DNA of 64,000 nucleotides from Candidatus Magasanikiibacteriota bacterium (GTDB lineage Bacteria; Patescibacteriota; Patescibacteriia; Magasanikbacterales; GWA2-37-8), in NCBI GenBank assembly GCA_016189025.1, contig JACPGS010000019.1, positions 16,272-80,271 on the forward strand. Direction: 5' to 3'. This document shows, piece after piece, positions 11,474 through 57,459 of the stretch. Both the position numbers and the translations under genes were made by a program. The notes under the pieces were generated by a model. The model worked only from the letters and a program-made list of their open reading frames with translations. It was not told where the DNA came from and ran no database searches. The first letter of the stretch is position 1; the number at the start of each line of letters is the position of its first letter.

Positions 11474-11488
11474 ACGAGCGGATTAAAT

Positions 11489-12636: not shown

Positions 12637-13362
12637 GTGGGGTTTTTTCTTATGTCCAAACTAGTTTTTGACATTGAAACGGTCGGCGAGGATTGGGAAT
12701 CCCTGGATCAAACTACGCAGGAAGCCCTGACGCGCTGGATTAAACGCGAGGCCGAGAGCGAAGCTGAATACCAGGTGTCGCTCGCCGCGGTAAAAGACGG
12801 GTTAGGGTTTTCGCCGCTCACCGGGCAGATTGTGGCGATCGGCGTATTGGATTGCGAAAAGAATAAAGGCGCCGTGTATTTTCAGGCGCCGGGAACTTCC
12901 CTTACGGAGTCAGAGGAAGACGGCATAAAATTCAAACCCGCTACCGAACGAGAAATGCTGGAACAATTCTGGCAGGGCGCCCGGCAGTACCAGGAATTTA
13001 TCAGCTTCAACGGCCGGGCATTTGACGCGCCGTTTTTAATGGTGCGCTCCGCTATCCACGGAATTCGCCCCAGTAAAGACCTAATGTCCAACCGCTATCT
13101 GGGGAGCCAGCGCTACGACTGCAAGCATATTGACCTCATGGATCAGTTGTCGTTTTACGGCGCTGCGCGCCGCAAGGGCAGCCTGCATTTGTGGAGTCGC
13201 GCTTTTAGCATCAAGAGCCCCAAAGCCGACGGCATCAGCGGCGACGACGTTAAACGATTATTCAGCGAGAAAAAATTTTTGGACATCGCCCGCTACAACG
13301 TCGGCGATTTAGCGGCGACGCGGCAGCTGTACGAACAATGGGAAAAGTATTTGCGGTTTTAG
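12637..13362 (+). CDS. RNase H-like 3'-5' exonuclease (PolB-exonuclease-like / YprB family). The true start is probably the Met at 12652.
   Basis: 'LVFDIETVG' is a DEDD-type Exo I motif. '…FNGRAFDAPFL…' and a later 'YNVGDL' give Exo II/III-like acidic residues. Confidence 0.55.
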   Translation: MGFFLMSKLVFDIETVGEDWESLDQTTQEALTRWIKREAESEAEYQVSLAAVKDGLGFSPLTGQIVAIGVLDCEKNKGAVYFQAPGTSLTESEEDGIKFKPATEREMLEQFWQGARQYQEFISFNGRAFDAPFLMVRSAIHGIRPSKDLMSNRYLGSQRYDCKHIDLMDQLSFYGAARRKGSLHLWSRAFSIKSPKADGISGDDVKRLFSEKKFLDIARYNVGDLAATRQLYEQWEKYLRF

Positions 13363-26177: not shown

Positions 26178-29100
26178 TTAGTAAGTGAGGGTCTTGGCCT
26201 GAAGCGGCAAGTCGGTGCCCATGGCGGTTATGTTCGTAGAGACGCCATCACCCCAAGTAACCTGGCGGCTGCCGATGCGCACCGAGAGACTGGGATTCGG
26301 GTTGGTAGTCGTCTTGGTGGCCGCATCGGTGGTATCCAAGGTGATGTAAATCGTTTTGGAAGCGCCCGAGGAGATTTGGAAATCCGTAAAGTTAGCGTCC
26401 CTTAGGGCAGAATTGCCGCTGTTGGCGCTGGCGAAAGTCTGGGTGGCGGCGTAGTTGGTGGTAGCCAACTGGTTAGCGGTAGCCACGGAATCTTTGTACA
26501 CCGTCAGGGCGCGCGTTGCCCCTACTCCCGCCGCCTGCGAAATAGTAGTGCCGAAGTTGAAGTTCATCAACTGCACCATAGCAGTGTGGCCTTCCACATT
26601 CGCCTTGTTGATAATCGTAAAGATTCCCACGATCTGTGCGCTGTTCGGCGACGAAGCGCCGGTGGGAGAATTGGCATCCCAGCCCACAGTAAGCTTGGCG
26701 CGGTACAAGGTAGTGGTTGGAGCATAAGCACCACGGCTCAATCCGTATTGATTGGCGTTAGTAAGGAACGAGACGGTCGGGGTAATTGAAACGCCGGATT
26801 GCGTACCTACCGCAGTGAACGGCGTAATACTGCCGACATTGAAGGCCGAAAGAATTACGGGTTCAACTGTTTGTCCGGTGGAAGCGGCACCGAGTTCGCC
26901 AAAGGCGGTAAAGTCAACCACCAGTTTAATCTTCTTCGTCGCTCCTTTCGGAACCTCTAAATTGAGGCCGGTGAAGGTGGCGTGCGAGTAGGTGCTGGTG
27001 GCCGCCGCGGTGCCGGCGACGCTGTCGCTGAAAGCAGACACCGTGCCGCCAATCTGGGCGTCGGTAGCATCATCCACCAGCCTGACATTTTTCATGGTAC
27101 CGGTGGCGCCGGGGCTGAACCGCGCGCTTACCACAAACTGGGTAATCTTAATTGGTTCCGTGGAGCTCGCTTGCAGAGCGAACTTGGCAATCGTCTGATT
27201 AATATCGCCCATCAGGTAGTTGTTGGCTACCGGCGAATCCGAGTCTACGGAAGCCATAAAGGCGCCCGACGAAGAGATTTCCACATTCTGCAGCCGGATG
27301 GTCTGACCGACTAAGCTGGCGGAGGCTCCGGTGGTCTTGCCAGTAGCGGTTACCCCTGTCAGGTTCATGAGGGGGGTTGCCGTAAGCGTGGTGGTCTTAA
27401 TATCCGCATACACATCCACCGTGTACTGCCCGCCGTTGGTAATGCTTACTGCTGGCGAAACATTATAGGTGAAAGTATTGACCGTGGCACAGGTTGTTGC
27501 CGGGTTCAACTCTTGGCCCAGCTTTTTACCGGTGGAATCCTTCAGCGTTAGGTACTGCAAGTAAGTGCCGGTACAGGTATAGGCGGTGCGGTCGGCCAGG
27601 GTAATCTGCGAAACTTCCACGTCTTCGCCGGCGCCGGCCGTAATGACAAACGAAGCTACTTTAATCTGGGCAGCATTAACAGTACCGGTAGGATTGTCGG
27701 CCGATTTGTCGCCAAAGGCTGTGTTCATTGCCAGACTGACGGTGCCGGAGCGTACCGTTAGGGGGTTTCCGGTTTGCATAGCGGTATTAATGCTCCCCAG
27801 CGAAAGCATGCCATAGGCATTATGGTAACCTGCCGATAAGGCAATAGTAATTATTTCGCCGGCGTCGATGCTGGTATGGGTGAGGTCAGCGACAATAGTT
27901 ACCGTAGCCGTGGCGCCGGCTTTAAGGATAAAACTATTGCCGAAACTGCCCCAGCCATTGTGGGGCGCGCCATTGGCAGTAAGCATGGGTATAGTAGAAC
28001 CAACCTGCGATCCATCAACCTTGAGCCGGACATTGACTAAAGCATTATCCTGGCTGCCGCCTGAGGTGGAAGATACGTTTAAACTGCTGATTTTAATATC
28101 TTCGCCATTCGCTTGCCATAAGAATTTGGCCAGCACTAGATTGGTTGCGCTGTCCGGCACGATACCGGTGGGAGCATCGGCGGCAGTGGTTTGCGCCAGC
28201 GTGCCGGCGCTGAAACCGCCGGCGGTTCTTAATAATAAATTATCCAGCCGGCCGGTGCCGTAGGCCGAGAAGTATTGAATCCCAAGAATGCGAGTGTTAG
28301 GCGAGTAGGCCGATACATCTTGCTGTAAGTCGCGGGCAATGGTATGCCAGGCGCTGTTGGCGACGGTAGGGTCAATTTGGTAATATAAGGTATTGCCGCG
28401 CCAGCCGGGGATGTTATTAGTGGCGTAAGAAAGATATAGATACCCGTTGTTAAGGTCCGTGTAATCGGTTTTTAGCATGATCAGGAAATTGGCCTGATTC
28501 TGGTATTTGAAGTCCCACTGTAACACTGGGAAATTAGGGAATTGCCAGGGATTATTGGCCGGAGCGTAAAACACCATTCTGACCGAAGGGGAGCTGGCGG
28601 TCAGCGAGATTACCCGGCCATGCGCCGGATCTTCATCCACTATATTCTGAATTACCGAAGTAGTGCCGCTCGGATGAATAAACCAGGGATTGGTGTCGCC
28701 GTCACTGCCGTCTTCGTAGATTACCGAAGACAGAGGCGCGTTCGCGGAAAAATTCGCCACCACATCAGTACCGGCCGCATCAACGGTTACTGCCACATTG
28801 GGGAAAGTATATCCTTGCTTTTGCGCTACTAACTGATAATTGCCTGGCGGCAGGCCGGGCAACCCATAGCGGCCGGTCGCATCAGTTAACACACTGGCAT
28901 TGCCCGCCACTCCCACCGCTACTCCGGAGAGCGGATTATTTTGACTATCCGTGACCGTACCGGAAACCGTAGCCAAGGGCACTGTTTTTAAGAGCGCTAG
29001 ATTGTCTATCCGGCCAGTGCCATAACTAGAGAAGTATTGAATGCCGAGAATGGTAGTGCCCTGGGCATAGGCCGCCACGTCAGCCTGCAGATTGCGGGTT

Positions 29101-29573
29101 AAGGTGTGCCAAGCCCCATCGGCCAAGGAGAGATCAAGTTTGTAATAGAAAGTATTGCCGCGCCAGCCCGGAGTATTATCGGTGGCATAAGAAAGATAAA
29201 GATAGCCATTATTGATGCTGGTGTTATCGGTTTTAAGCATGACGAGGAAATTGGCGCGACTCTGGTATTTATAATCCCACTGGAGGATAGGGAAGCTGGG
29301 GAATTGCCAGGTGTTATTGGCGGGAGCGTAAAACACCATCCGTACCGAAGGAGAGCTGGCGGTAAGTGAGATTACCCGATCGTGAGCCGGGTCTTCATCC
29401 ACTATATTCTGAATTACCGAAGTGGTGCCGCTAGGATGAATAAACCAGGGGGCGGTGTCGCCGTCACTGCCGTCTTCGTAGACGACAATGTCGGCGGCCT
29501 GCGCCGGGAGGGGTGAATTTAACAAAACCAGGGCGAGCGTTAGGAGGGCGCTTAAATAGCGGCGGAATAGCAT
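26178..29573 (-). CDS. Large secreted protein (1131 aa). It has two N-terminal copies of an uncharacterised ~190-aa module, each followed by a carboxypeptidase-regulatory-like (CarbopepD_reg) beta-sandwich. The rest is a Thr/Ser/Ala/Val-rich beta-repeat region.
   Basis: Signal peptide 'LLTLALVLLNSPLPAQA'. Module copies start 'VVYEDGSDGDTAPWFIHPSGTTSV…' and 'VIYEDGSDGDTNPWFIHPSGTTSV…', and end 'YFSSYGTGRIDNLALL'. 'TVSGTVTDSQNNPLSGVAV…TDATGRYGLPGLPPGNYQLVAQKQGYTF' is CarbopepD_reg-like. Confidence 0.7.
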   Translation of the reverse strand: MLFRRYLSALLTLALVLLNSPLPAQAADIVVYEDGSDGDTAPWFIHPSGTTSVIQNIVDEDPAHDRVISLTASSPSVRMVFYAPANNTWQFPSFPILQWDYKYQSRANFLVMLKTDNTSINNGYLYLSYATDNTPGWRGNTFYYKLDLSLADGAWHTLTRNLQADVAAYAQGTTILGIQYFSSYGTGRIDNLALLKTVPLATVSGTVTDSQNNPLSGVAVGVAGNASVLTDATGRYGLPGLPPGNYQLVAQKQGYTFPNVAVTVDAAGTDVVANFSANAPLSSVIYEDGSDGDTNPWFIHPSGTTSVIQNIVDEDPAHGRVISLTASSPSVRMVFYAPANNPWQFPNFPVLQWDFKYQNQANFLIMLKTDYTDLNNGYLYLSYATNNIPGWRGNTLYYQIDPTVANSAWHTIARDLQQDVSAYSPNTRILGIQYFSAYGTGRLDNLLLRTAGGFSAGTLAQTTAADAPTGIVPDSATNLVLAKFLWQANGEDIKISSLNVSSTSGGSQDNALVNVRLKVDGSQVGSTIPMLTANGAPHNGWGSFGNSFILKAGATATVTIVADLTHTSIDAGEIITIALSAGYHNAYGMLSLGSINTAMQTGNPLTVRSGTVSLAMNTAFGDKSADNPTGTVNAAQIKVASFVITAGAGEDVEVSQITLADRTAYTCTGTYLQYLTLKDSTGKKLGQELNPATTCATVNTFTYNVSPAVSITNGGQYTVDVYADIKTTTLTATPLMNLTGVTATGKTTGASASLVGQTIRLQNVEISSSGAFMASVDSDSPVANNYLMGDINQTIAKFALQASSTEPIKITQFVVSARFSPGATGTMKNVRLVDDATDAQIGGTVSAFSDSVAGTAAATSTYSHATFTGLNLEVPKGATKKIKLVVDFTAFGELGAASTGQTVEPVILSAFNVGSITPFTAVGTQSGVSITPTVSFLTNANQYGLSRGAYAPTTTLYRAKLTVGWDANSPTGASSPNSAQIVGIFTIINKANVEGHTAMVQLMNFNFGTTISQAAGVGATRALTVYKDSVATANQLATTNYAATQTFASANSGNSALRDANFTDFQISSGASKTIYITLDTTDAATKTTTNPNPSLSVRIGSRQVTWGDGVSTNITAMGTDLPLQAKTLTY
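28160..29500 (-). repeat. Two tandem copies of the ~190-aa 'YEDGSDGDTxPWF…YFSAYGTGRIDNL' module (protein-level repeat, roughly 60-90% aa identity)
   Basis: Aligned by eye against the six copies in 39225..41225 and 53160..55150. Confidence 0.6.
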
Positions 29574-30010: not shown

Positions 30011-33000
30011 ATGACGACAGCAGCCAGGCGAATCATTGTTTGGGCAGTCATTGTCCAGTTAGTTTTTTTGCCGCTGGCGCCGCTCTGGGCGCAAGAAGCG
30101 GCAGTTGCCCCGTCGGGCAGCGTTCCCCAGGCCAGCGCCCCTGATTCTTTTGGCGCCGCCTCTCTGTTACCATCAGTTAATACCGGCACGTTAAATGTTG
30201 CCGGTTTTAATTTACCGGCTGATTCCACCGCCGCTGCCCCCAGTACTACTATTAATATCGTTAATCCTGGCAATCTCGGCAGCGATAATCAAGTCGGCAA
30301 TGCGGCGCCGGAGATGGCAACTTCCACCCCCGCAGGAGCGGCCACTCCCTTGCCTTCCTATTCGTCTTTAATGCGCCAGGTCAAAGACATCAAAGCAGGC
30401 AAGATTAAGAATGATGGATCAGTCGCTGCCGCATTTAAAGCCTTTATTGAAGCGGAAGAGAAAAAATTGGATCAGCTGGGGGTGGATTCAGATAAGCAAG
30501 AGCGATATTTTACCTTGCTTAAACAGCAATGGCGCGCGGTGGGCGGCAGTCCCGCTTTAACGACTTGGGAAAAGGCTTCGCAAAAATTACGCGGAATTTT
30601 TGGCCTGACCGAAACCACCGAAGAAGCGGCCACGCCGCCGGAGGACAACATCTTAATTCCCCGGCAGCCCGGCTCGTTTAAATTTAATGATGAGAAAATA
30701 ATCGTTGAATCTCTAAATAGCGCGGCCAATAAACCGAAGCCGGCGCCCTTAAGCTGGTGGCGCAATATTTTTTGGGTTGACTCGGCAGTAGCGGCCGATG
30801 ACCCGAATTTACCCCAACTGGCGGACGTTCAACCAGACAATGGCGAGGTGGTGATTAACTCGGAAATAATGGATTTAGCCGGTTCCCTCAATAATAATCC
30901 GGTGAAGATTTTGAACTATGTAAGAAATAATGTTAGTTACGTACCGTATTATGGCGCCAAAAAAGGGAGCCTCGGTTGTTTAAGAGAAAAAGTTTGCAAT
31001 GATGTGGACGCCTCGTCTTTGCTGATTGCTCTCTTGCGTGCCGGCGGTATCCCCGCTCGCTATAAAAAAAGTCTGGCGCTGTTTCCGGTGGGCCAGCTAA
31101 ACAATTTTCTGGGGGTAGATGAAACCAAAACTGCTTTTGCGGCGCTGGCTTTGAATAAAGTGCCGGTGTACACCATCAACAGCGTTAATGCCGGCAAAAC
31201 CCTGGCGGATGCCGATTTTTCCCTGGAAACCCAATTAGCCGTGGAATGGGTATTTGCGGAGGCTTTTTATGATTATGACCAGCGCGGCGGCGATATTGAT
31301 AATCAGCTTAGTTTTACCGATGCCACCACTACGGCGGCAGTGCAGCTGGCACTCGGCGGATCTCCCAAAAAACAATGGCTGGCGCTGGACGCAGTGGTTA
31401 AGCCGTCTACCCGCCTAAAAAAAGAAATCGTCGCGGATACGGCGCAGTTTGATACCCAGAGTTTTTGGAACAACTATCTTTCCTATCAAGGCAGTTTATC
31501 GCCGCTTAATAAATATATTGATGATCTTGCCAGCGCTACCGGCAAAAATATTACTGATCCGGCTTATCAGTCGGTGAAAATCCCCGCCAGCGCGGATTTG
31601 CCCTATCTGCCCCCCACTTTGCCGTATTATACCCGCACCGGTTCAGTGGGCGGTTCGCTAATCCAGCCCGAGGCCTGGTCGGTGTTGCCTGCTAGTTTAC
31701 GTCAGCAGGTAACCATCAGTTTGCGCAAAGCGGCGGATAATAGTGTAGTGTTGCAGCATACTTTTTTTGGCAATGAAATCAATAATGTGGAGTTGAATTT
31801 GAATTATGAAGGCGCCACCGACCAAGACCGGCAAATTATTGACAGCTATGGCGGTATTGCCTATACGCCGGCGGCTTTGGCCAGCCTTAAGCCGTATTTA
31901 GAAAGCGAGGGAGCGCGCTATGATTCCACCGCCGTTCTCCAGGTTGGCGATACCCTGATTCTGGAGTTTAATTATTTAGTGCAAGGACAAAGCGTTTATT
32001 TAGACGAAAAGTTTTCCCTGGCCGGCAATCAAGAGGGTATTTATATCGTATTATCCAAAGTTCAGGATGACCCGGCGCTAGATACCAATTCTCATATTCT
32101 GTTGCGCGGCAACACCGGGCTGGCGCGCAAGTATTTACTGCAAGATGAGCAGAGCGGTAGGTTGTTGGGAAAGTCGCTGGATTATGAGTTTCATTTCTCT
32201 TTTGTGCGCGCGGTGGTAACGCAAAACCGCGTGCTTGCCAAGGTCAACGGTCTGCCCACCACCTTTGACTTCCAGGGGCTGACCTTGGATTCCAGCACCT
32301 ATATTACCGACTATTCCAATCGCGGCGATTACCGCACTCACCAAAAAGATTTCCGGCTCCTGTGGGGGCTGAACAGCTCGTATTACGAGGGGCAGCTACT
32401 GGAAGATATTACCGGTTTGCAGAGCATTGCTACGGTCCAGGGATTGCAGTACGCCTACGCCCACCCGGCCGATTACACTGTTTATACCATCGCCAGCACC
32501 ACGCCCAATTACCAGTCGCTGGTAAGTTCGCTGGCGCTGTCTGACGCCACGAAAAACAACATAATTTGGGAAATCCAGCAGGGCAATACCGTGATTACGC
32601 CCGATAAAATAATCACTGACGGCATTTGGCGAGGCGTGCTTTATATTGTTCGGCGCCCGGATTTTACCGCCCAGTTCGCGATTGGCGAGCAGGTGAGCAA
32701 TGGGGGGTGGACGACGGATGGATACGAGATAATTTTGGTGTTAATTGATGGCAAGGAGTACGCGCGCTTTAAGAATGAGGGAGTAAACGATAATTTTGTA
32801 TTTGCTGATGGCATCTTTGGTGCTGATGATAAAAAATGTCGCATGCCTAAGACACAGTTTTTGGGTATTATGAATAATCAGAATAATGAAGGCTGGCAAC
32901 CGGCATATGGTCTACCTTGCTTGACTGAAACCAAACAGTTTGGCTCGGTAAATCATACCTATATTTTAACCACCGAGGCGGCTAAATTCTACAGTCCAAG

Positions 33001-34639
33001 TAAGTATGATTATTGGGTAACAGAAGCGAATGCTAAGAATATTTTGAGCAATGATAAGGATAAGGACAATACCGAAAACTTGAGTGATATTAAGTTAGAT
33101 AGTACTTTTAAATTTAACCCTATCGCTGGGACATATTCTTGGTTCGGGCACTATGGCTGGCGAGGCAAAATGATCACCGCCTATTATCAACCTACCAGCC
33201 AGGGTGGAGCGGGGCGCATGGTTTATGGCGATATTTTAGATAAACTTACGCAAGCGCACTTTAATCCCCAGAGCTATCTTTGTTCTTCACGAGACACCTA
33301 TTGCGGAAAGGAGAACTATGTGTTGAATACGATAGGTTTTCCCACTGGGAACAAAAGAGTAGCGGCACCATTCATTATAAATTGGGGGATTGACACCCAA
33401 GGTTATTATCAGGATTTTATCGGCGGACAGGTATATGTAAAAACCAGCGGTAGAAATAAAATTTACTATGTTCCCGGCAAAATTTCAGAGTATTACAATA
33501 ACCAGCAGAACTGCCGCCTAGTTAATGGTCAAACAGTCTGCGGCAGTGGAGGGGTGTTTGGGTTTCCCACCAGTGACCCTTATCTAAAAAACGACAAAAT
33601 TACCTTAAAACAAACTTTTGAGAGCGAAGCAATTGTGTGGAATACGCAAACTGGTGCCACCGGCCCTGAATATGCCGCCTATTATTATTGTGATGAAGTT
33701 GATACCAATAGTAATTTTATCATCGGCAAAGCACTTCTGCATGGTTTATGGGACGGCGGAAGTTCTTTAGCCAAAGGCGCGATTATTTTTGGCGCCACCG
33801 CCTTTGCCGCCGGGGCCACAATTGATTTTGTATTTGGCACTCATGGCGGCGCCACCATTGCCGCTTGGAGTGCCATTGGTATTGGAGCCACAATAGGTGT
33901 GGCAGAGGTTTATCGGCAGGGAGTTAGTAATGTTTTTGCCAATGTCGACCAACGAATTCAATATGAATTTGAGCATTCCAACTGTACAGCCCGTAAAGCA
34001 TATTTGTTTTCCCGGTATGTGCCAGAAGCGGCAGTGATAGTTTTGGGGATTAAGGATTTAGCTGTTAAAACACCGTCTGAATTACGCGGTATCACTCTTA
34101 CTAATAATATTTTTACTGCTTCCCAAAGCGAGGTCTTGCCGAGGATGAAGAGTGCGTTTATTCAGAATTTGGGCTTTTTTGACAGAGTATTCAGAAGAGG
34201 TGAGGCGGATAGAACAAAAATTATTGAGGATATTGATCTAAAAGTGCAGTCTGAATTGGCGACACAGACTAAGATAAAGGGCACATCATTGACACAAGAA
34301 GAAGAGAGTTCGGTAATAACCAAAGAGTATACAAAAGACTTATCACAAAATAAGTTAGTTGTTAAGAAAATTACAGAAGAAGTGGAACCGACACTAGATC
34401 GAATCACCCGAGGGGAAAAGTATCCCTGGCAAAATGATGGCAGTATATATAAAAATATTTCCCCAGCTGATAGCGGGAGGCCGCCAATCATGAATGATCC
34501 TAATTATTATACTGAGTATGTACACCCCACATATGGTTTGCAATTGGGTGACCCAGGGCTACAAAGGGTGATTATTGGTAAGGGTGGAGAAGTTTATTTT
34601 ACCGCCGATCATTATCACAATTTTATCCGACTAAAATAG
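30011..34639 (+). CDS. Giant secreted protein (about 1540 aa from the Met at 30011; the ORF is open from 29939). It has a transglutaminase-like cysteine-protease core, a C-terminal glycine-zipper/TM-like segment and an AT-rich C-terminal ~250-aa module. Polymorphic-toxin-like architecture.
   Basis: Signal peptide 'RRIIVWAVIVQLVFLPLAPLWAQEA'. 'GSLGCLREKVCNDVDASSLLIALLRAGGIPARY' matches the transglutaminase-like core (the catalytic Cys followed by the ALLRAxGIPAR motif). 'GAIIFGATAFAAGATIDFVFGTHGGATIAAWSAIGIGATIGVA' is a glycine-zipper. GC content drops sharply from about 33.0 kb to the end. Confidence 0.6.
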   Translation: MTTAARRIIVWAVIVQLVFLPLAPLWAQEAAVAPSGSVPQASAPDSFGAASLLPSVNTGTLNVAGFNLPADSTAAAPSTTINIVNPGNLGSDNQVGNAAPEMATSTPAGAATPLPSYSSLMRQVKDIKAGKIKNDGSVAAAFKAFIEAEEKKLDQLGVDSDKQERYFTLLKQQWRAVGGSPALTTWEKASQKLRGIFGLTETTEEAATPPEDNILIPRQPGSFKFNDEKIIVESLNSAANKPKPAPLSWWRNIFWVDSAVAADDPNLPQLADVQPDNGEVVINSEIMDLAGSLNNNPVKILNYVRNNVSYVPYYGAKKGSLGCLREKVCNDVDASSLLIALLRAGGIPARYKKSLALFPVGQLNNFLGVDETKTAFAALALNKVPVYTINSVNAGKTLADADFSLETQLAVEWVFAEAFYDYDQRGGDIDNQLSFTDATTTAAVQLALGGSPKKQWLALDAVVKPSTRLKKEIVADTAQFDTQSFWNNYLSYQGSLSPLNKYIDDLASATGKNITDPAYQSVKIPASADLPYLPPTLPYYTRTGSVGGSLIQPEAWSVLPASLRQQVTISLRKAADNSVVLQHTFFGNEINNVELNLNYEGATDQDRQIIDSYGGIAYTPAALASLKPYLESEGARYDSTAVLQVGDTLILEFNYLVQGQSVYLDEKFSLAGNQEGIYIVLSKVQDDPALDTNSHILLRGNTGLARKYLLQDEQSGRLLGKSLDYEFHFSFVRAVVTQNRVLAKVNGLPTTFDFQGLTLDSSTYITDYSNRGDYRTHQKDFRLLWGLNSSYYEGQLLEDITGLQSIATVQGLQYAYAHPADYTVYTIASTTPNYQSLVSSLALSDATKNNIIWEIQQGNTVITPDKIITDGIWRGVLYIVRRPDFTAQFAIGEQVSNGGWTTDGYEIILVLIDGKEYARFKNEGVNDNFVFADGIFGADDKKCRMPKTQFLGIMNNQNNEGWQPAYGLPCLTETKQFGSVNHTYILTTEAAKFYSPSKYDYWVTEANAKNILSNDKDKDNTENLSDIKLDSTFKFNPIAGTYSWFGHYGWRGKMITAYYQPTSQGGAGRMVYGDILDKLTQAHFNPQSYLCSSRDTYCGKENYVLNTIGFPTGNKRVAAPFIINWGIDTQGYYQDFIGGQVYVKTSGRNKIYYVPGKISEYYNNQQNCRLVNGQTVCGSGGVFGFPTSDPYLKNDKITLKQTFESEAIVWNTQTGATGPEYAAYYYCDEVDTNSNFIIGKALLHGLWDGGSSLAKGAIIFGATAFAAGATIDFVFGTHGGATIAAWSAIGIGATIGVAEVYRQGVSNVFANVDQRIQYEFEHSNCTARKAYLFSRYVPEAAVIVLGIKDLAVKTPSELRGITLTNNIFTASQSEVLPRMKSAFIQNLGFFDRVFRRGEADRTKIIEDIDLKVQSELATQTKIKGTSLTQEEESSVITKEYTKDLSQNKLVVKKITEEVEPTLDRITRGEKYPWQNDGSIYKNISPADSGRPPIMNDPNYYTEYVHPTYGLQLGDPGLQRVIIGKGGEVYFTADHYHNFIRLK

Positions 34640-34662
34640 CGGCGGCAGATTGCTTAAAGTTA

Positions 34663-35313
34663 TTGTTTTTATCTATCACTATTATGGAAAATTTTGCAGA
34701 TTTGAAGAAATTTGAAAATCGTGAGTCTCTGAAAAGAGATTTAGAAAATCGGGGTATTATTTTTAGTGATGGTTTAACTGGCCAAGAGATTACGCATGCG
34801 GAGAAAAAATTTAAGTTTAATTTTCCGCCCGACTTAAAAATGTTTCTTCAACATGCATTGCCAATCGCTAGAAAAGAGCGAGATGAATCGTTTTTTCCCG
34901 ATTGGAGGCATTTGAATAGTGATAGTTTGAATTTTTATATGGGTCTTCCATTAGAGGGAATATTGTTTGATGTTGAAAACAATAACTTCTGGTTGCCTGA
35001 ACTGGAACAGAAACCGCAAGATAGCGAGAAAGCAAAAAAGATTATGATTGAAGCTGTTAATAAAGCCCCAAAATTGATTCCTATTTATGCACACCGGTAT
35101 CTTCCCGCTGAGCCGCTTGAAGAAAATAACCCTATTTTTAGCGTGCATCAGACGGACATTATTTATTACGGATCATATTTGTATGATTATTTTCAAGTCG
35201 AATTTAATAAAAGGGTCTATGCAAGTAGTGGCGTAAAGCCGAAAAAAATAAAATTTTGGAGTGCAATTATAGAAAGCAATACCGGCCGGAGTGAATCGAT
35301 GCTGGCTCCATAG
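34663..35313 (+). CDS. SUKH/SMI1-KNR4-like immunity-protein candidate
   Basis: 'GLTGQEITHAEKKFKFNFPPDLKMFLQH' resembles the SUKH N-terminal 'I..aEk.lg..lP.dyk.FL' motif. It lies immediately downstream of the AT-rich C-terminus of the giant protein and shares its composition. Confidence 0.4.
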   Translation: MFLSITIMENFADLKKFENRESLKRDLENRGIIFSDGLTGQEITHAEKKFKFNFPPDLKMFLQHALPIARKERDESFFPDWRHLNSDSLNFYMGLPLEGILFDVENNNFWLPELEQKPQDSEKAKKIMIEAVNKAPKLIPIYAHRYLPAEPLEENNPIFSVHQTDIIYYGSYLYDYFQVEFNKRVYASSGVKPKKIKFWSAIIESNTGRSESMLAP

Positions 35314-35566
35314 TCCCGCTATAACCACCGCCACGATAATTTGCCACTCTGTCGATGTCCATTATGGTCAAGATTATAGCTATTTTGGTGGTCAAAAAGC
35401 AGCACAAGCGATATTAAATGGCAATGTGGTGTATTTGGTAGGTAATGATGTGTTGAAAATATATAATGCACAGGGTGGCGTTTGTGGGATATTAGGGTCA
35501 CCAATTAGCGAGTTTGATTCTGTCACTAGATCGCAACGTTTCGAAAACGGTGTTATATCGTTATAG
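35291..35566 (+). CDS. Small hypothetical ORF (91 aa), possibly a second immunity/orphan module
   Basis: Open frame, AT-rich, overlaps the previous gene's end. No motif. It could be spurious. Confidence 0.25.
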   Translation: MNRCWLHSPAITTATIICHSVDVHYGQDYSYFGGQKAAQAILNGNVVYLVGNDVLKIYNAQGGVCGILGSPISEFDSVTRSQRFENGVISL

Positions 35567-35596
35567 TAACTACTCTCATTTTCATTTATTACACAT

Positions 35597-35914
35597 ATGT
35601 TAGAAAAAATGCACAGTAAAATTTACCATCTATTCATGCCGAATATTTATAAGATTGTTATATTTATTATAATGAGCTTTATCACAATTTATGCTATAGG
35701 AATTTCTTTTTCCCTTGCGTTGACGGATGTGGAGGAAAAATTTAGCACAATCAACGGCATTATTAGCATATTTTTTGTATGGCCGTTATTGGCTATCGGC
35801 AATTTGATAGCGGGCTTAAGTTTAAATATCATATATATTTATATATTGAGTTGCATAATCTATTTTTCATTATTCTGGTTAAAAAATAAGCTGAAACAAG
35901 AAAAAGAAAATTAG
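35597..35914 (+). CDS. Small membrane protein with 3 predicted TM helices, hypothetical
   Basis: 'IYKIVIFIIMSFITIYAIGISFSLAL', 'IISIFFVWPLLAIGNLIAGL' and 'IIYIYILSCIIYFSLFWL'. Very AT-rich. Confidence 0.4.
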   Translation: MLEKMHSKIYHLFMPNIYKIVIFIIMSFITIYAIGISFSLALTDVEEKFSTINGIISIFFVWPLLAIGNLIAGLSLNIIYIYILSCIIYFSLFWLKNKLKQEKEN

Positions 35915-35917: not shown

Positions 35918-38900
35918 ATGCCCAAACTTAAAAAAATTCTTGTTTGGTTTACGGTATTCGCCAATCTGGCGTTTAATTTTACGCTGGGCGGGCAAGTATT
36001 GGCGCTAGGCGCATCGGTTTCTGATTCTCAAAAAGCGTCTGTGGCTGAAATTGCGTCCCAACCCAAGGCCTCAGCCGCGCTCAATCGGGCAAGTATCAGC
36101 GGGGACACGGACAGTCCGGTGATTGATTTAACCACGGCGCCGCGTTGGCAGCCGAAAAAATTAATACCGGTAACGCCGGGATCGGCCCAGGTAAAAGCAG
36201 AGGCAATCAGATATCAAGAGGCGCCGGCCTCGCCCCGGGCCTTGCGGGGGGCGACCATTAAACAGTTATGGCAGAAAAAATCCGAGGCCGAGCGGAAAAA
36301 TGTATCAGCCGGGCAGTCTAAGTCCGTCAGTTTTAGCCAATGGAACCGATTGGTGGCTTGGGTGGGTAAGATGCTCGGGCCAACTCCGGCGCGGGCCGCC
36401 ACGCCGCTCATCGCCTATGAGGCCGGCATTGAACAGCGGCCGCTGGATTATGCTTTGTATTATTTAGCCAATCAGCAAAATCCCAATGGATCGTTTGGCG
36501 CGGCTAATGTTTATGAGGCCACGGCCGAGATGGTTTTCTTTCTTAATGACATCGGCCGCACCGCCAATGATCAGTATCTGCCGGCGCTTAATTATATTTT
36601 GAATACTACGCCGACCACGACGCGCGCCCAAGCGTTGAAAGCCAGAATAGTTGCCGGCCTGGGGCAAAACGCGACCCCGTTACTGGATGAAATCGTTTCC
36701 AGCCAAAACGCGGACGGCGGCTATGGGTTGTTGCCAGGCTACGAAAGCGATCTAGTAACTACTTTAGAGGTCGCGCTGGCTTTGCGGGCGGCCAATTATC
36801 AGCCGGCGGACCGGCAGACGGAAGCGTTATGGTTTGCGCTTAATCAGATTCCTGCTTCCGGAGAATTGCGTTATGCCGCCGTCAGCCCGCCCAGTTATTA
36901 TTTGATTAACAAAACGGCGCAAAATTTGCAGCCATTCCAAGGTTTGACAATTACCGACAGCCAGTCACAAATCACGGTGGCGGTTAATGATAAAGTGAAT
37001 GCCTTGCTGGGGTATTTGAGTTCGCAATACGATGCGTCATCCGGACGCTTGTTGGGAGCGGCCGATGTGCTGGATGAAATTATGACGGCGCAAACCTGGC
37101 GCCGTTACGGGGTGGAATTAATTAATTGGCACGCCTTGCGTCAATCAATTTTAAGCCAACAGCAAACCGACGGCTCGTTTATGAACTCGGTGCTGGCTAC
37201 CGAGCAGGGCATTGACGCCACGGCCTTGCCGGATTTGTCTTTGGTAGATCATATCAATACCACTCCTTTGGTTAATAAAAATAACGTTACTTGGCAGGTT
37301 ACCGTTACCAATGCGGGTTATGCCTCTAACGGTCAGGCCCGGCTTAATTTGGTGGCGGATAATGTTTGGGTGAGCACGGTGGATTTTGCGGGTCAGGGGA
37401 TAGTAGTCCCGCCCAACAGCACCGTAACTTTGAATATTAACGTGGCCGATACCACCGGATTGATTGGCGATACGGAAATCAAGTATTATCTTAGCGACGC
37501 GGAAGAGCTGAATTACGACAATAACTGGCTGGCCAAGCATTTTACTTTTGCCTCGGCCGCCGATGGTTCCCCGGCCTTGCCGCTTTATTATATTGCGCAA
37601 AAATGGGAGATCGGAAACGACCCGGCGGTGAACGTGCGCTGGCAGCGAAAAAGCGACCCGCAGCGGTTTAATTACGTATTTATGTACCGGGAGAAAGGAA
37701 CGGGACAGTGGAATTTTGCCTCTTTGGATAATTCTTTAGCCGGGGCATTTTTATCTCCTTTTGGCGAAGGGATAACTTACGAGATAACCATTGGGACAGT
37801 GCATTTAGACCAGCAAACCATAACTTATTTTAATAATTTAAGCGAGGTTACCACTAGCGCCGATCCCAATAAATTTATGGGTCAGGTGAGCGGCACGGTG
37901 GGTGATGCGTTTCAGAAGTTCCCTAATTTAAACACCACGGCCTACGGCGCCGGCGCTCTCACTGACAGTCAGTCAGCGTTTGTTTATGCGAAGATGGAAA
38001 ACGGTACTTCTGCGGCGCAGGTTGACGCCGCGCCCCATGAGTCAATCAGGAAAAAATTCGCAGTGGCAGTTGGTGCCACCACTACGGTGGCTCTTCCCAC
38101 CCGGTTAAAAGAGGATACCGTAGCGCCGCAGATTACCTACTTAGCCATTCCTTTAAGTAATTTCCTGATTAAAAATCAAACCGAAGCTAGCCTTAGCGCC
38201 AGCGTCTCGGATAATGTGGCGGCCAAGGAAGTTGATTTTTACTATTGGGATCCCGGTCCGGGCGCCTGGTTATTTTTGGGCACCGCCGAGGTAAGGAGCG
38301 GCGGGGCTTCGTTTTTGTGGTATGTGCCGGCAGATTTGCTGGGGGTGGGTTATAAAATAAAAGCAGTGGCCCGGGATTATCGCGGCAATGTATCGGCGCC
38401 CCAAGAGTGGGGTCCGTTCCAGATTATTGACGGCAGCCCGCCCGCCCGCACCATCTCCGGCACAATCAGATATTACGACGGTGTAAAAACAGTGCCCAAT
38501 GCCACGGTAATTTTACAAAATGATGTTGGCGCGCAATTAGCCGCCACCACTACCGACAGCAACGGCAGGTATCAATTTACCGGTGTGGCCGATGGCGGCG
38601 CTTACGGGGTGACGGTAACCTCAACCGACATGAGCACCAATGGCGTTGATAGTGCTGATCAGACCAAGATCGGCAGGCACATTGTTGGTTTGGAGCCTTT
38701 TGATTCCATTTACAAAATAATTGCCGGGGATGTTAATGATAGCGGTGGTCTTACTAGTGCTGATCAGGGAAAGATCGGCCGGTTTATCACTGGCCTTGAT
38801 GTGAACCTGCCTTCCGGTATTTGGAAGTTTTATGATGCCAGCGTTGTTTTAACTTCCGCCAATTATTTAACCACCGGTTTAGCCAAAACATATACCAACT

Positions 38901-41230
38901 TAACCGCGGACCAGGCTGACCAGGATTTTGTCGGCATTAAAATGGGAGACGTAGACAATTCGTGGAGTACTGCCAATAAAGATATCACCCTATTCAGCTT
39001 CCCCTCTGCCACCAGCACCATCACCGGCGCCAATATCGCCGTCACCGTTCCGTCTGGCACTAATGTTACGGCTCTGGTGCCCACCATTATCCACACCGGC
39101 GCTTCGGTCAGCCCGGGGAGCGGCGCGGCGCAAGATTTTACCAATCCGGTCACCTATACTGTCACCGCCCTTGATGGTTCAACCCAGGCGTACACAGTGA
39201 CGGTTACGGTTTCGCCTCCCCTGGTCATTATTTATGAAGACGGAAACGACCTGGACACTGCCCCCTGGTTCGTGAGCCCCGCGGGCACCACCTCGCAACT
39301 GGAAAATATCGCGGCCGACGATCCGGCCCACGGCCGCGTAATTAAGCTCACTGCCAGCCCTGCCTCCAGCCGGATGGTATTCTATGCCCCCACCAGCAAC
39401 CCCTGGCAATACCCCAGCCTCCCTATTTTACAGTGGGATTTTAAGTACCAAACCCAGGCCAACTTCTTTATCTCGCTCAAAACCGATAACACGGCCATTA
39501 ACAACGGCTATCTCTACCTCTCGTACGCCACCGCCAACACCCCCGGCTTCCGCGGCAACACCTTTTATTATCAGCTAGACCCCGCGCTTGCCGATGGTTC
39601 TTGGCGTACCTTAACCCGCAACCTTCAGCAGGATGTGGCGGCTTTTTCGCCCAACACCACCATCCTCGGCATTCAGTACTTCTCGGCCTATGGCACTGGC
39701 AGCATAGACAATCTGGCTCTGCTCAAAGAAAGCGCCCTCGCTACCGTATCGGGCAAAGTCGTTGACGCCAAAGGCAACCCGATCGTCGGCGCTCTTATCA
39801 GCGCCCCGCCCTATAATCTGACGACAGTTACCGACAGCCAAGGCAACTACCGCTTACCGGGCCTGCCCCCGGGTTCGTATACGCTCACTCCGGTAAAGTT
39901 TGGCCTTGATCTGCCCGCTGCTTCGGTCACGGTTGGCGTTTCTGGCGCTGATGTTTCTGGAATTAATTCGTCAGGCAACTTCGTCCTCTACGAATCCGGC
40001 GATGACCTGGACACCGCCCCGTGGTTCATTTCCCCCGCTGGCACCGCCTCCACCCTGGCCAACGTCAGCGACGACGCTAACCACGGCCGCGCCATTGCCC
40101 TGACCGCTAACGACCCTTCCACCCGGATGGTGTTCTACGCTCCTACGAATAACCCCTGGGCGCTCGCCACTCACCCGGTACTGCAGTGGGAAATGAAATA
40201 TTCGAGCGATCCGGAATTCCTGATCTATCTTAACACCAACAACGGCGTCCGCTACTTGTCATACGGCACGCAAAACACCCCAGGCTGGCGGGGCAATAAG
40301 TTTTATTTTAAGCTTGACCCTGGTTTTAAGGATGGTAAATGGCACACCCTCATTCGCAATCTCCAGCAAGACGTTGCTTCACTTTCCTCCACTACTACCA
40401 TTACCGGCATCAGCTATTTCTCCGCGTACAACAGCGGCCGGATTGACAATCTTCAGCTTAGGCCCGCCCAGCCCCTCTCCACTGTTTCCGGCACGGTTAC
40501 CGACGACCAGGGGAATTCCGTGGCTGGAGTAGCGGTTTCCGCTCCGCCTTACGGGGTCAGCGTTCAAACCGATGCCACTGGTAAGTACTCCCTCCCCGGC
40601 CTTCCTGCTGGTTCTTACACTCTGACCTTCCAAAAACCAGGCTACACTTTCCCCACGACCCTCCTGACCGTAGACGGCTCTAACCCTAACCTGACGCAAG
40701 ACGTGAGCGGCACCCTGCCCGCCTCAATCACCTACGAAGACGGCAGTGACGGCGATACCAACCCCTGGTTTATCAGCCCCGCTGGCACTAATTCAACTCT
40801 GGTAAACATCATAGACGAAGACCCGGCGCACGACCGCGTCATCAGTCTTACTGCCAACGCCAATTCCACCCGCCTGGTCTTCTACGCTCCGGCCTCTAAC
40901 CCCTGGGCCTATCCGGCGCTTCCCATTATTCAGTGGGACCAGAAGTACGCCGGCGATTGGGAAGTCCTTGTCTACCTGGACACCTCGGCCGGCGCCCGTT
41001 ATCTCTCCTATTCGCCGCATCACGCCAGCAATTACCTCTACAACAATAACACCGCCCGCCTTAAAATGGACGCCAATCTGGCAGACGGCGCCTGGCACAC
41101 CATTACCCGCGATTTGCAGGCTGATTTCGCCACGCTCTTCCCGGGCGTTACCATTACCGGTGTCAAGTATTTCTCGGTTTACGGGACGGGGCGGATAGAC
41201 AATTTACGGTTATTGAAGCAGCTGCCGTAA
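35918..41230 (+). CDS. Giant secreted protein (1770 aa). Domain order: an alpha/alpha-toroid (prenyltransferase/terpene-cyclase-like 'QxxDGSFG' repeats), Ig-like domains, a dockerin-like Ca-binding repeat pair, then three copies of [uncharacterised ~190-aa module + CarbopepD_reg].
   Basis: Signal peptide 'ILVWFTVFANLAFNFTLGGQVLALGASV'. 'QQNPNGSFG', 'SQNADGGYG' and 'QQQTDGSFM' are toroid repeats. 'GDVNDSGGLTSADQGKIGRFITG' and 'STNGVDSADQTKIGRHIVG' are dockerin-like. Module copies start at 'LVIIYEDGNDLDTAPWF', 'FVLYESGDDLDTAPWF' and 'ASITYEDGSDGDTNPWF'. Confidence 0.75.
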   Translation: MPKLKKILVWFTVFANLAFNFTLGGQVLALGASVSDSQKASVAEIASQPKASAALNRASISGDTDSPVIDLTTAPRWQPKKLIPVTPGSAQVKAEAIRYQEAPASPRALRGATIKQLWQKKSEAERKNVSAGQSKSVSFSQWNRLVAWVGKMLGPTPARAATPLIAYEAGIEQRPLDYALYYLANQQNPNGSFGAANVYEATAEMVFFLNDIGRTANDQYLPALNYILNTTPTTTRAQALKARIVAGLGQNATPLLDEIVSSQNADGGYGLLPGYESDLVTTLEVALALRAANYQPADRQTEALWFALNQIPASGELRYAAVSPPSYYLINKTAQNLQPFQGLTITDSQSQITVAVNDKVNALLGYLSSQYDASSGRLLGAADVLDEIMTAQTWRRYGVELINWHALRQSILSQQQTDGSFMNSVLATEQGIDATALPDLSLVDHINTTPLVNKNNVTWQVTVTNAGYASNGQARLNLVADNVWVSTVDFAGQGIVVPPNSTVTLNINVADTTGLIGDTEIKYYLSDAEELNYDNNWLAKHFTFASAADGSPALPLYYIAQKWEIGNDPAVNVRWQRKSDPQRFNYVFMYREKGTGQWNFASLDNSLAGAFLSPFGEGITYEITIGTVHLDQQTITYFNNLSEVTTSADPNKFMGQVSGTVGDAFQKFPNLNTTAYGAGALTDSQSAFVYAKMENGTSAAQVDAAPHESIRKKFAVAVGATTTVALPTRLKEDTVAPQITYLAIPLSNFLIKNQTEASLSASVSDNVAAKEVDFYYWDPGPGAWLFLGTAEVRSGGASFLWYVPADLLGVGYKIKAVARDYRGNVSAPQEWGPFQIIDGSPPARTISGTIRYYDGVKTVPNATVILQNDVGAQLAATTTDSNGRYQFTGVADGGAYGVTVTSTDMSTNGVDSADQTKIGRHIVGLEPFDSIYKIIAGDVNDSGGLTSADQGKIGRFITGLDVNLPSGIWKFYDASVVLTSANYLTTGLAKTYTNLTADQADQDFVGIKMGDVDNSWSTANKDITLFSFPSATSTITGANIAVTVPSGTNVTALVPTIIHTGASVSPGSGAAQDFTNPVTYTVTALDGSTQAYTVTVTVSPPLVIIYEDGNDLDTAPWFVSPAGTTSQLENIAADDPAHGRVIKLTASPASSRMVFYAPTSNPWQYPSLPILQWDFKYQTQANFFISLKTDNTAINNGYLYLSYATANTPGFRGNTFYYQLDPALADGSWRTLTRNLQQDVAAFSPNTTILGIQYFSAYGTGSIDNLALLKESALATVSGKVVDAKGNPIVGALISAPPYNLTTVTDSQGNYRLPGLPPGSYTLTPVKFGLDLPAASVTVGVSGADVSGINSSGNFVLYESGDDLDTAPWFISPAGTASTLANVSDDANHGRAIALTANDPSTRMVFYAPTNNPWALATHPVLQWEMKYSSDPEFLIYLNTNNGVRYLSYGTQNTPGWRGNKFYFKLDPGFKDGKWHTLIRNLQQDVASLSSTTTITGISYFSAYNSGRIDNLQLRPAQPLSTVSGTVTDDQGNSVAGVAVSAPPYGVSVQTDATGKYSLPGLPAGSYTLTFQKPGYTFPTTLLTVDGSNPNLTQDVSGTLPASITYEDGSDGDTNPWFISPAGTNSTLVNIIDEDPAHDRVISLTANANSTRLVFYAPASNPWAYPALPIIQWDQKYAGDWEVLVYLDTSAGARYLSYSPHHASNYLYNNNTARLKMDANLADGAWHTITRDLQADFATLFPGVTITGVKYFSVYGTGRIDNLRLLKQLP
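39225..41225 (+). repeat. ~2 kb segment (module copies B1-B3) about 88-90% nucleotide-identical to 53160..55150 in the 2994-aa gene
   Basis: Long near-identical runs, for example 39961-40450 vs 53911-54400, and 40700-41220 vs 54650-55140. Confidence 0.75.
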
Positions 41231-47237: not shown

Positions 47238-50200
47238 TTGCGATTCAAAACGCTTGGTAATATGTACAAAACCATTTTTTTAAAATGGCTGCCAGCTCCA
47301 TTAGCGGCAATTTCCTTAGTTAGCTTGCTTTCGACGCCGGCTTTAGCATTGGAGAATGAAAATGTTGGCCCGTTGTCTGCTTCGTCTACTTTAGAGGCGC
47401 CGGTAGCGGACGCCTTGGCCACTTCTACCTTTCTTTTTGGCGCCTCTTCAACCACCGCTGTTTTAGAGCCAGGCAAACAACCGGGTAGTGATAAGACTGA
47501 TAAGGCGGCGGCAGAAAAGAAACAACGAAACTTTACGATTCCAATTTTTGATAAATCCCTGCGCGATAAGTATGGGGATAATTTAACGATTACCGATGAC
47601 GATGTATTCCTTGGCAGTGGCTTGATCAGCAGAACGGCCAGCACCACGCCCGCCGAAGCCGAACAAGCAGCCCGCGAGCGCCAGCGCGACTATGCAGCGC
47701 GGCGAGAGCGCATTAAAACCCGTCAGCAAAAGAAGGAGCAGTCATTACTTGCCCCTCGTTTCCGACCCGATGAACTGATTATTAAATTTAAGGTCAATGT
47801 TTCCGAGCTGGAGCGGGCAGAAGTATTGCGGGGGCAGGCATTAAAAGAGTTGGCCATTCGTTCTGTGCGTTCGCGCGTCGTTTTGCCGGGCGAAAAAATT
47901 ATCCTTAACAAGCAGTTAAAATTTGATGAGATGCGTTCGCTGGCGGCGACCCTGAAGCAGGATCCGCGCGTGGAATATGCGGAACCCAATTTTATCGCCC
48001 GCGCGTTGTCGGTAGCGCCCAATGACAGTGATTATGGCCAGCAGTGGGCGCTATCCAAAATACAAGCGCCGGATAGCTGGGAAATTACCACCGGCACCCC
48101 TTCGGCGGTGATTGCTATTTTAGATAGCGGCTGGAGCGCAACGCATCCCGACGCGCCGGCGCGTACGGTAGCAGGTTATGACTTTGTAGGCGATGACAGC
48201 GTGCCAGACGATGATAACGGCCATGGCACCTTGGTGACCGGGGTAATTGCCGGTAAAGCCAACAACGGCCTTGGCATTGCCGGCGTTTGTTGGGAGTGCG
48301 CCATTATGCCGGTTAAGGTGGTAAATAGCGTCGGAGAAGCCACTGTCGCGGATGTGGCAGACGGTATCCGGTGGGCCGTTGATCACGGAGCCAAAATTAT
48401 CAATATCAGCGTCGGCTCTTATGATTATTCGGTATATTTAAAAGAAGCCATTGATTATGCCCTAGCTCGGGACGTACTAGTGGTGGCGGCGGCTGGCAAT
48501 GATAAATCCAATTTTCCGGTGTACCCAGCCGCGTTGCCCGGTGTTATTGCCGTTTCGGCTACTACCAATGCCGACCAGTTGTGGGCTAGCTCAAATTATG
48601 GCGGTTATGTAACTTTAAGCGCCCCGGGTGAAAATATCTACAGCACGGATTTTAACGGCGGATATTCGTTAACGAGCGGCACCTCGTTAGCGAGCGCTTA
48701 CATTTCTGGGGCCTTGGGCATTCTGCAGTCGGCTAAACCCAATACCACTTCCACGCCATTGCTACAGGCGCTACTGGCCGGCGCTGATGATGTTGGTTTT
48801 GCTGGTAAAGACAGCTATTTCGGCGTCGGGCGGCTTAATATTATGAAGGCCCTGCAGGCGCTTTTGGGCAATAATTTAACCGGCGGTTTGCCGGAGAAGC
48901 CGGCGTATAGCGAGGATGATATATTTGGAGATGCTTTTTATTCCACCATTTCACTATCAGAAATCAGAAATTTTCTTAGTGCTCAAGCTGGCATACTCAA
49001 AAATTATCAAGAGGAGAGCCAAGGGCAAATTTTAGCCGGAGCAGATATTGCTGATATCGCTTCAATCGATAGTCAATTGGCGCCAATCAACCAGCGGATT
49101 CTTTTGGTGCTTTTAGAATTGAAAGCGCAAGTTATTACCAATTCTGCTCTTTCCCCGTCAACGTTACCGACTATATTTGGCGTTACTCAACAACAATATC
49201 TGCAATTTCTTCGCGCCATAGGTGTTTCTGAAGATAAATTAACACCCCTACCCACCACTGACCGTCTGCTCATTCAACTTACCTATGTAGCGGAAAAACT
49301 TCGGGAATACTTGAATTTAGGTGAATCAGGAGTGAGACAAATTATCTTTAAGGATGGTACGACGGTGGATACACCAACGCAAATTAACGCGGAGACTTAT
49401 GCACTGCAACGGCTGTTAGCTGAACAGGCGGATTCCCGCGCGCAATGGCAGCAATGGGTCTCAAAGAATGGCGGTTCTTTTTATGATTTATATCAACGTT
49501 GGTTTGGTACGCCGCTACAAACACTAGCTGGCAAAATAATTGAGCCACCCGCCATTCCTTTTTTACAGAAGCCGTATCGCGATGAAACATATTGGTGTGG
49601 TGTCACCAGTTTTTTTGATCATAAGTATCCTGTTTATTATTCTCAAGAAGTCGCTCGCGGTAATTTTGCTACCGACACCGTTGCATTATTCACAGGGAAT
49701 ATTCTAACTGCAGTGCCTACCACTACGGGATATAATTCTTATACTGGGCATGACGGGTTTGATATGCTTATTCGAGACTGTAATACATCCGGTCCTGCAG
49801 CTATTGGTAAAAATGTTCTTGCTGTCGCCGATGGCGTAGTCACGAAAGCCACTTCAACAAATTCGGCTGGTAATATCGTTTGGGTCGAACACGATGCGGA
49901 TGGTGACGGAAGAAATGATTACCGAACTGCCTACTATCATCTCAAAGAACCCAGTTCTCTTCATCCCGGTGTCACTGTATCAGCAGGTGTAACAATTATA
50001 GGGATAGCAGGCGATACAGGTCGTTCATCTAAAGGGGTACATTTGCATTTCGGCGTTTATAAATTGATCTATAATTCTAACGGTTCTTTTAATTCGGCTA
50101 AAGCTATTGACCCCTACGGCTGGTGGGGTGATTATCCTGATCCCTGGGAGGTGGCTAATAAATATGCCAAGAGTTCCTTTTTGTGGAAATCCTCCACCGA

Positions 50201-57405: not shown

Positions 57406-57459
57406 GACATCACACTCCAAAATCGGACTCACCACTAAATCCGAGCAAGGAGTAATTAA

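Follow-up and report, generated by a model that had tools for sequence, protein, structure and literature searches.

A candidate Sec-dependent polymorphic toxin locus with an exchangeable ribonuclease tip beside a SUKH-fold gene in a Candidatus Magasanikbacteria genome

What is the role of a very large, predicted exported protein that ends in a nuclease domain and is followed by a gene of the SUKH (SMI1/KNR4) fold, and do the two belong together? The question is raised by a locus in a stretch of 64,000 nucleotides (nt) from a Candidatus Magasanikiibacteriota genome (assembly GCA_016189025.1, contig JACPGS010000019.1, positions 16,272 to 80,271 of the forward strand), henceforth called the window, to which coordinates refer unless the locus of a relative is named; the genes of the locus lie on the plus strand. 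The large gene (30011..34639) encodes a scaffold protein of 1542 amino acids (aa) from an ATG at 30011, the longest open reading frame (ORF) starting at TTG 29939 and comprising 1566 aa. The ATG is the likely start because the family alignment begins at the signal peptide, and it agrees with the 1542 aa that an independent gene call gave for an identical Logan contig; amino-acid numbers of the large protein are nevertheless counted from TTG 29939. The adjacent gene, ORF2 (34684..35313), encodes 209 aa from its ATG or 216 aa from an alternative TTG at 34663, and is the immunity candidate. The 3′ part of the large gene, ORF2, and the two small frames behind it (ORF3 and ORF4) all lie within one AT-rich tract of 3.1 kb, and every ORF named in the first-pass annotation of this DNA was recovered at the same position in the ORF list. 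We consider it probable, though by no means firm, that the locus encodes a Sec-dependent polymorphic toxin system of Candidatus Magasanikbacteria, with an exported scaffold, a swappable ribonuclease (RNase) tip and protection by the SUKH protein.

The end of the large protein was assigned with the help of Pfam and PDB matches. Its last 100 residues (aa 1467-1566; 34337..34636) form an RNase tip of the barnase/RNase Sa family. Pfam PF00545 (Ribonuclease) matched aa 1467-1565 over profile positions 7-97 of 98 with 27.7 bits (gathering threshold 24), and the PDB matches were RNase Sa2, Sa3, and Sa, with E-values from 3e-6 (Sa2/Sa3) to 1e-3. In an alignment of the window tip with RNase Sa and 21 relatives, the columns of RNase Sa Glu54, Arg69, and His85 hold E, R, and H in the tip and are (nearly) invariant in the 23 sequences; the equivalent of Arg65 is missing from the tip and likewise across its whole subfamily. 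An exhaustive HMMER search returned 1074 relatives of the tip, always at the extreme C-terminus of host proteins ranging from 63 to 3921 aa, and the scaffolds of the long ones (47-54% identity) were SpvB+RHS, RHS, PT-HINT, and filamentous-haemagglutinin (CdiA)/PT-VENN proteins. Given the PF00545 and RNase Sa matches and these C-terminal relatives, the tip is the known ‘Tox-Barnase’ module and not a new toxin family. The first-pass annotation had been unable to place a C-terminal module of ~250 aa in any toxin family and had suggested that the toxin domain may be new; both statements are superseded, as the last ~100 aa are a PF00545 ribonuclease with more than 1000 relatives on other proteins. 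A word-indexed search with the last 219 aa had found no match, and novelty on that ground was rejected because the 1074 HMMER relatives identify the empty result as a limit of sensitivity. The tip belongs to a small subclade, in that an insertion of 2 aa (GLQLGDPGLQR) and an altered loop (GRPPIMNDPNYY) are common only to it, P0240, and P0243. Separately, five relatives of 237-424 aa (P0241, P0245, P0258, P0274, and P0365) match in two to three stretches, so that tandem RNase domains are possible.

The scaffold was compared with its relatives. A homologue search yielded 54 full-length relatives (1154-1877 aa, 33-50% identity), the named sources of which are Magasanikbacteria, Peregrinibacteria, or unclassified ‘bacterium’. 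The stretch aa ~140-930 can be aligned in all 54 (41-62% identity), and beyond it similarity is nested. Across aa 950-1230 identity is lower and the relatives rank differently, P0010 and P0008 being best in the core and poor here; aa 1230-1345 are matched at 55-71% only by P0001-P0003 (P0005 and P0007 reach ~30%); aa 1345-1466, comprising a junction motif and a linker, are matched within the family only by P0001-P0003 (39-58% identity); and the last 100 aa are matched by none of the 54 scaffold relatives. Forced alignment of the tip with the tips of its own scaffold family gave 11-25% identity and no significant similarity, whereas with tips carried by unrelated proteins it shares 47-58% identity. 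The outcome that would have spoken against exchange, a C-terminus aligning end-to-end with orthologs, was thus absent. Alignments of the relatives end at aa ~1229-1238, ~1274-1302, ~1369-1391, or ~1464-1508, with none sharing the last 60 aa. Many end at aa 1229-1238, just before a ‘YYYC’ junction motif (aa 1248-1251; 33680..33691) that was recognised from BLAST end points and tail sequences; several relatives have ‘YYCG’ and then a hydrophobic stretch. Next comes a hydrophobic ‘glycine-zipper’ segment rich in Gly and Ala (aa 1261-1325; 33719..33913), common only to P0001-P0003 at 55-71% identity. The variable cassette starts with a pre-toxin junction motif, C-x-A-R-x2-Y followed by hydrophobic residues (aa 1328-1381; 33920..34081), continues with a linker (aa 1382-1466; 34082..34336) partly common to P0001-P0003 and P0240, and has its tip junction at aa ~1381-1466. 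A C-x-A-R profile built from the family detected the motif in 28 of the 55 members, where it precedes differing tips and lies 146-272 aa short of the C-terminus; the motif is specific to the family and not a described polymorphic toxin (PT) domain.

The tails of the relatives belong to EndoU_bacteria, AHH/HNH, Tox-REase-7, and NAGPA or consist of LGFP repeats, and many have no assigned family. The gene that follows varies with them. P0001, P0002, and P0003 have a common tip, and the gene behind each encodes a ~420-aa protein of a single family (36-41% identity); behind the EndoU-tipped P0004 lies a 133-aa ORF unrelated to these, and behind P0008 yet another unrelated ORF. Wherever the tip was assigned or shared within the family, the examined relative had a downstream gene specific to it. 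P0006, whose C-terminus consists of LGFP repeats, has neither a nuclease tip nor the islet of variable genes, the next giant gene beginning 66 nt further. That giant gene corresponds to 35918..41230 of the window, which ends the variable islet, encodes a 1770-aa surface protein (Pfam CarboxypepD_reg, Glce_b_sandwich, CARDB), and is syntenic, with 38-41% identity to the gene downstream in L006, L007, L008, and L145. The comparison of orthologous loci thus bears out the polymorphic-toxin organisation proposed in the first-pass annotation, with a shared core (aa 140-930), differing tips, and a downstream gene that co-varies with the tip. Judged from sequence comparison, the family appears to be a scaffold family of the Candidate Phyla Radiation (CPR) with interchangeable nuclease tips and at least 54 members, and no description of this scaffold was found in the searchable literature.

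Some further observations concern these relatives. The P0001-P0003 tip carries an ‘SGH[YF]’ motif without Pfam match, which by eye is also found in P0007, P0008, P0011, P0014, and others, and the ~420-aa family behind it (L006 5131-6912; L007 6561-7676 and 7720-8967; L146 5742-7043) is a candidate for a new immunity family. Just past the islet, relatives repeatedly encode an RDD-family membrane protein (L006 6390-6912, L008 10089-10610, L146 7091-7342), which in L006 is fused to the ~420-aa protein; the window lacks this gene and has ORF4 in its place. The P0006 locus L145 (91-4791, with the giant gene at 4857-9731) may represent a tip-less ground state.

Base composition was examined along the same region. 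GC content falls from 0.50-0.54 to 0.40-0.45 at ~32.7-32.9 kb, is 0.30-0.39 across 34.0-35.9 kb, and is back to 0.58 at 36.0 kb. Within the large gene, GC content at third codon positions (GC3) drops from ~0.65 to ~0.40 at aa ~930-950, that is, where the conserved core ends and ~630 aa are still to follow. The abrupt GC switch noted near 33.0 kb in the first-pass annotation is therefore real (32.7-32.9 kb) and is misplaced as the boundary of a toxin module, as it falls at aa ~930 and the tip junction at aa ~1381-1466. A drop in GC3 of 0.2-0.3 at the corresponding position, ~2.7 kb from the start of the gene, was found in three of the four relatives examined (L007, 0.55 to 0.28; L009, 0.55 to 0.33; L008, 0.47 to 0.27), and the AT-rich 3′ part is a recurrent trait of the scaffold family, not specific to this genome. 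As other low-GC patches occur in the window at 10-13, 44-47, and 56-61 kb, the AT-rich tract is not unique in this genome either.

How the tip might leave the cell is suggested by the remainder of the scaffold. The protein begins with a predicted Sec signal peptide (30011..30091; MTTAARRIIVWAVIVQLVFLPLAPLWA followed by QE, with the putative cleavage site between the two), and the relatives share a hydrophobic N-terminus ending in A-x-A/Q-E. The transglutaminase-fold domain comes directly after the signal peptide. The conserved core (aa 140-930; 30356..32728) contains this transglutaminase-like domain (Pfam match at aa 320-375; 30896-31063) and a beta-rich remainder that gave no convincing fold match in the PDB. 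The C-terminal half of the scaffold (32729..33679) is AT-rich and less conserved; it has the GC3 switch and the changed similarity ranking at its start and includes LGFP-like repeats (Pfam LGFP at aa 1150-1189; 33386-33505). Cys353 is retained in at least 90% of close relatives and replaced by Gly in P0006 and P0012, as judged from the alignment only; of the other triad positions, the alignment showed no conserved His at the expected strand and a mostly retained Asp/Glu. A Pfam search found no RHS match in the large protein, and only distant relatives, such as P0062, P0070, and P0074, carry the same transglutaminase-like domain ahead of RHS repeats.

This architecture recalls Sec-dependent polymorphic toxins with inactive N-terminal transglutaminase domains, for which an anchoring role has been suggested (Zhang et al. 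2012, PMC3482391, section 19). Both have a signal peptide followed by a transglutaminase-fold domain, a long scaffold, a variable C-terminal nuclease tip, and a partner gene directly downstream, and distant relatives of the window’s transglutaminase-like domain occur on RHS proteins. The window scaffold differs from these toxins, which depend on Sec and the type II secretion system, in having a beta-rich core without PDB match and LGFP-like repeats instead of RHS repeats, in its family’s junctions (YYC and C-x-A-R, not VENN, HINT, or TG), in that the named members of its family are CPR bacteria, and in that the putative catalytic Cys is mostly retained. With this Cys retained, the transglutaminase-like domain is not necessarily inactive.

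ORF2 is predicted to adopt the SUKH alpha+beta fold. Its structure model has a predicted local distance difference test (pLDDT) score of 90.4, with YobK among the joint-best structural matches, and 38 of 52 members of its family match SUKH Pfam profiles at E ≤ 0.01 (best 2e-6); on these two grounds the fold assignment is sound. A sequence search of the PDB with ORF2 gave a chance match only. Over its 209 aa, ORF2 is identical to an NCBI entry named ‘SMI1/KNR4 family protein [Candidatus Magasanikbacteria bacterium]’, and an NCBIfam search gave no match for any of the four locus proteins. The ORF2-type subfamily comprises 885 relatives (P0121-P0239 among them) from CPR bacteria, Firmicutes, Planctomycetes, Myxococcota, and Actinobacteria. 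In Bacillus subtilis, YobK is the antitoxin of YobL, which is an RNase. The two are treated together in a review of B. subtilis toxin-antitoxin systems (PMC6562991). Like SUKH-1 immunity proteins such as YobK, ORF2 lies directly downstream of a C-terminal nuclease toxin; unlike them, it belongs to a subfamily of greater length (~190-210 aa) and of strong conservation from phylum to phylum, whose members stand alone in the other contexts that were examined. The SUKH superfamily neutralises many nuclease folds, and a barnase-fold partner is listed in neither of the two surveys (PMC3482391, PMC3113570), the SUKH survey (PMC3113570) leaving barnase unmentioned.

The unusual point of the locus is a barnase-type tip beside a SUKH gene instead of a barstar gene. 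In the PF00545 domain, the RNase Sa2/Sa3 match, the catalytic Glu, Arg, and His, and the position at the extreme C-terminus, the tip resembles the barnase-barstar and RNase Sa-barstar pairs and the Tox-Barnase tips of RHS, CdiA, and HINT toxins; it departs from them in its insertion and changed loop and in having no barstar-like ORF, since a profile built from the barstar-like ORFs of 45 relatives found no barstar in the 64-kb window (best E 3.4). By position (45 nt past the toxin stop codon, same strand) and fold, ORF2 is a candidate immunity protein of the adjacent RNase.

Several results weigh against the combination of exchanged RNase tip and SUKH partner. Among the loci of tip relatives, a barstar-like ORF was found in 75 of 80 from genomes and 40 of 45 from metagenomes (115/125; contig ends truncate three of the five metagenome loci without one). 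Where coordinates were inspected, it always lay downstream of the RNase, and none of the 125 sampled loci held an ORF2-type SUKH gene. Tox-Barnase is listed with Imm-Barstar only, an association called specific (PMC3482391). ORF2 itself scored 21.1 bits against Pfam SMI1_KNR4, below the cut-off of 25.4, so that of the SMI1/KNR4 signature ascribed to the frame 34663..35313 in the first-pass annotation the fold is upheld by the model and the family matches and the individual Pfam score falls short. Its family is unusually conserved for an immunity protein, with 45-50% identity across CPR bacteria, Paenibacillus, Gimesia, and Pyxidicoccus and 25 invariant columns in a sample of 52 sequences (one block reads ‘NPxFSVHQTDIIYYG’), and in six contexts (L011, L012, L014, L142-L144) no RNase was found upstream of its homologues, all of which stand alone. 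Composition is no marker of the cassette, as the switch lies ~630 aa before the C-terminus and GC3 drops in the relatives as well, and the locus sequence was identical in five sequencing runs, so that no tip swapping was seen within the population. Much of this would be expected if the locus were a polymorphic toxin locus and ORF2 were not the inhibitor of this RNase: ORF2 would then be a left-over or orphan SUKH gene directed against another toxin or serving another role, the tip would have been swapped in without its barstar, and protection would come from export in an unfolded state or from an unrecognised inhibitor, e.g., ORF4. The barstar of the tip relatives, the conserved stand-alone homologues of ORF2, and the commonness of orphan SUKH genes in general (PMC3482391) favour this account, which we nevertheless regard as rather unlikely, because ORF2 directly follows the toxin gene in the same AT-rich tract, because in all examined relatives whose tip is assigned or shared within the family this position is taken by a gene specific to the tip, and because the window tip falls into the small P0240/P0243 subclade, to which the barstar rule may not extend. 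The 125-locus count speaks for relatives outside that subclade; the contig of P0240, which carries the closest tip, is only 562 nt long, and the altered loops of the subclade leave room for a switch of inhibitor specific to it. Barnase-type RNases are moreover lethal to a producer without inhibitor, which also counts against an unprotected tip.

The weapon itself might be questioned. CPR bacteria are unable to make nucleotides, and a surface-anchored, wall-bound RNase (EndoU or HNH in the relatives) could digest environmental or host nucleic acids for uptake, with ORF2 only protecting the cytoplasm of the producer as barstar does for secreted barnase. Most assignable tips of the family are indeed nucleases, many members of the RNase family are small secreted enzymes accompanied by barstar, and simple barnase-barstar pairs have been treated as an incipient form without polymorphism (PMC3482391). 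Such scavenging, which we consider improbable, would leave unexplained why tips of unrelated folds are swapped together with their partners at conserved junctions, why a hydrophobic pre-toxin segment is present, and why the same tip sits on RHS, CdiA, and HINT delivery scaffolds. If a fast-evolving surface protein had simply diverged, without cassette exchange and with unrelated neighbour ORFs, a compositionally patchy genome and a GC3 drop common to the relatives would fit; this reading is already contradicted by tips from unrelated Pfam families, by the greater similarity of the tip to those on unrelated proteins than to those of its own family, and by a similarity ranking that changes at aa ~930 and a downstream gene that co-varies with the tip, and we give it next to no credence.

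If the locus is a Sec-dependent polymorphic toxin locus with a SUKH partner, it could work as follows. The 1542-aa protein would be exported via its N-terminal signal peptide and displayed on, or released from, the cell by means of the transglutaminase-like domain, the beta-rich core, and the LGFP-like repeats as wall-binding elements, a role suggested by their folds. Its last ~190 aa, after the C-x-A-R motif, would act as an exchangeable cassette ending in an RNase whose catalytic Glu, Arg, and His are assigned by alignment. The glycine-zipper segment (aa 1261-1325) may aid the tip across the membrane of the target cell, which is a speculative step. In the target, the RNase would degrade RNA and growth would stop, as its family and conserved catalytic residues suggest, and in the producer the ORF2 protein would bind and block the RNase, as position and fold suggest. 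New tips and partner genes would arrive by recombination at the conserved junctions, a step supported by the nested similarity, the co-variation of tips and partners, and the C-x-A-R motif; recombination of this kind would explain the nested similarity pattern, the AT-rich 3′ part, and a start-less LGFP fragment downstream.

This fragment is ORF3 (35291..35566), a frame of 91 aa without in-frame ATG that carries an LGFP-like repeat. It had no Pfam match and resembled the LGFP parts of P0006 and P0012 weakly (36% identity over 44-75 aa, E ~1e-5 in a database of 54 proteins); with low confidence, it may be a relic of a displaced 3′ end of a scaffold gene. ORF4 (35597..35914) encodes 105 aa, is AT-rich, and has three hydrophobic segments by inspection; it gave no match in Pfam or NCBIfam, and none of the loci fetched from other organisms contained a relative of it. 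Three bases after it begins the giant gene 35918..41230. Direct or inverted repeats flanking the AT-rich tract were short chance matches only, promoter and terminator scans remained at background level, and no tRNA genes were found.

Several other features of the window were noted. The giant secreted proteins encoded at 26178..29573 (minus strand), 35918..41230, and 47238..56222 (both plus strand) have common repeated beta-sandwich modules (Glce_b_sandwich-like and CarboxypepD_reg); a segment of ~700 nt near 39.3-40.0 kb has 82% identity to 53253-53951, and the 2994-aa protein of 47238..56222 also has subtilase S8, peptidase M23, and FG-GAP domains. A low-GC island at 9773..13362 (35-43% GC) encodes NYN, SIR2_2, and PolB-exonuclease-like proteins and looks like a small defence islet. 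A further low-GC stretch at 56380..62053 (33-43% over 56-61 kb) encodes a nitroreductase-like protein, an O-methyltransferase, and two histidine kinases with seven-transmembrane (7TM) receptors.

On toxins of CPR bacteria, the searchable literature yielded only a brief reference to an RHS-type toxin encoded by a Saccharibacteria genome (PMC6031116). Should the RNase be neutralised by the SUKH protein, the barnase family would have a second, unrelated inhibitor fold, a structurally new block in one of the best-studied enzyme-inhibitor systems, and the existence of a widely distributed and highly conserved orphan SUKH subfamily would be explained; otherwise, the locus would represent a toxin tip captured without its inhibitor. 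More tentatively, and with the doubt that so wide a claim deserves, the Sec-exported scaffold may serve CPR bacteria at large as a platform for nuclease toxins against host or competitor cells, the barnase-fold RNase having switched here from a barstar to a SUKH inhibitor and the ORF2 family constituting a widespread defence against this RNase subclade. CPR bacteria (Patescibacteria) are thought to live on other cells, and little is known of the molecules with which they act on hosts or rivals; this locus offers a concrete, testable candidate for a toxin/immunity pair among them.

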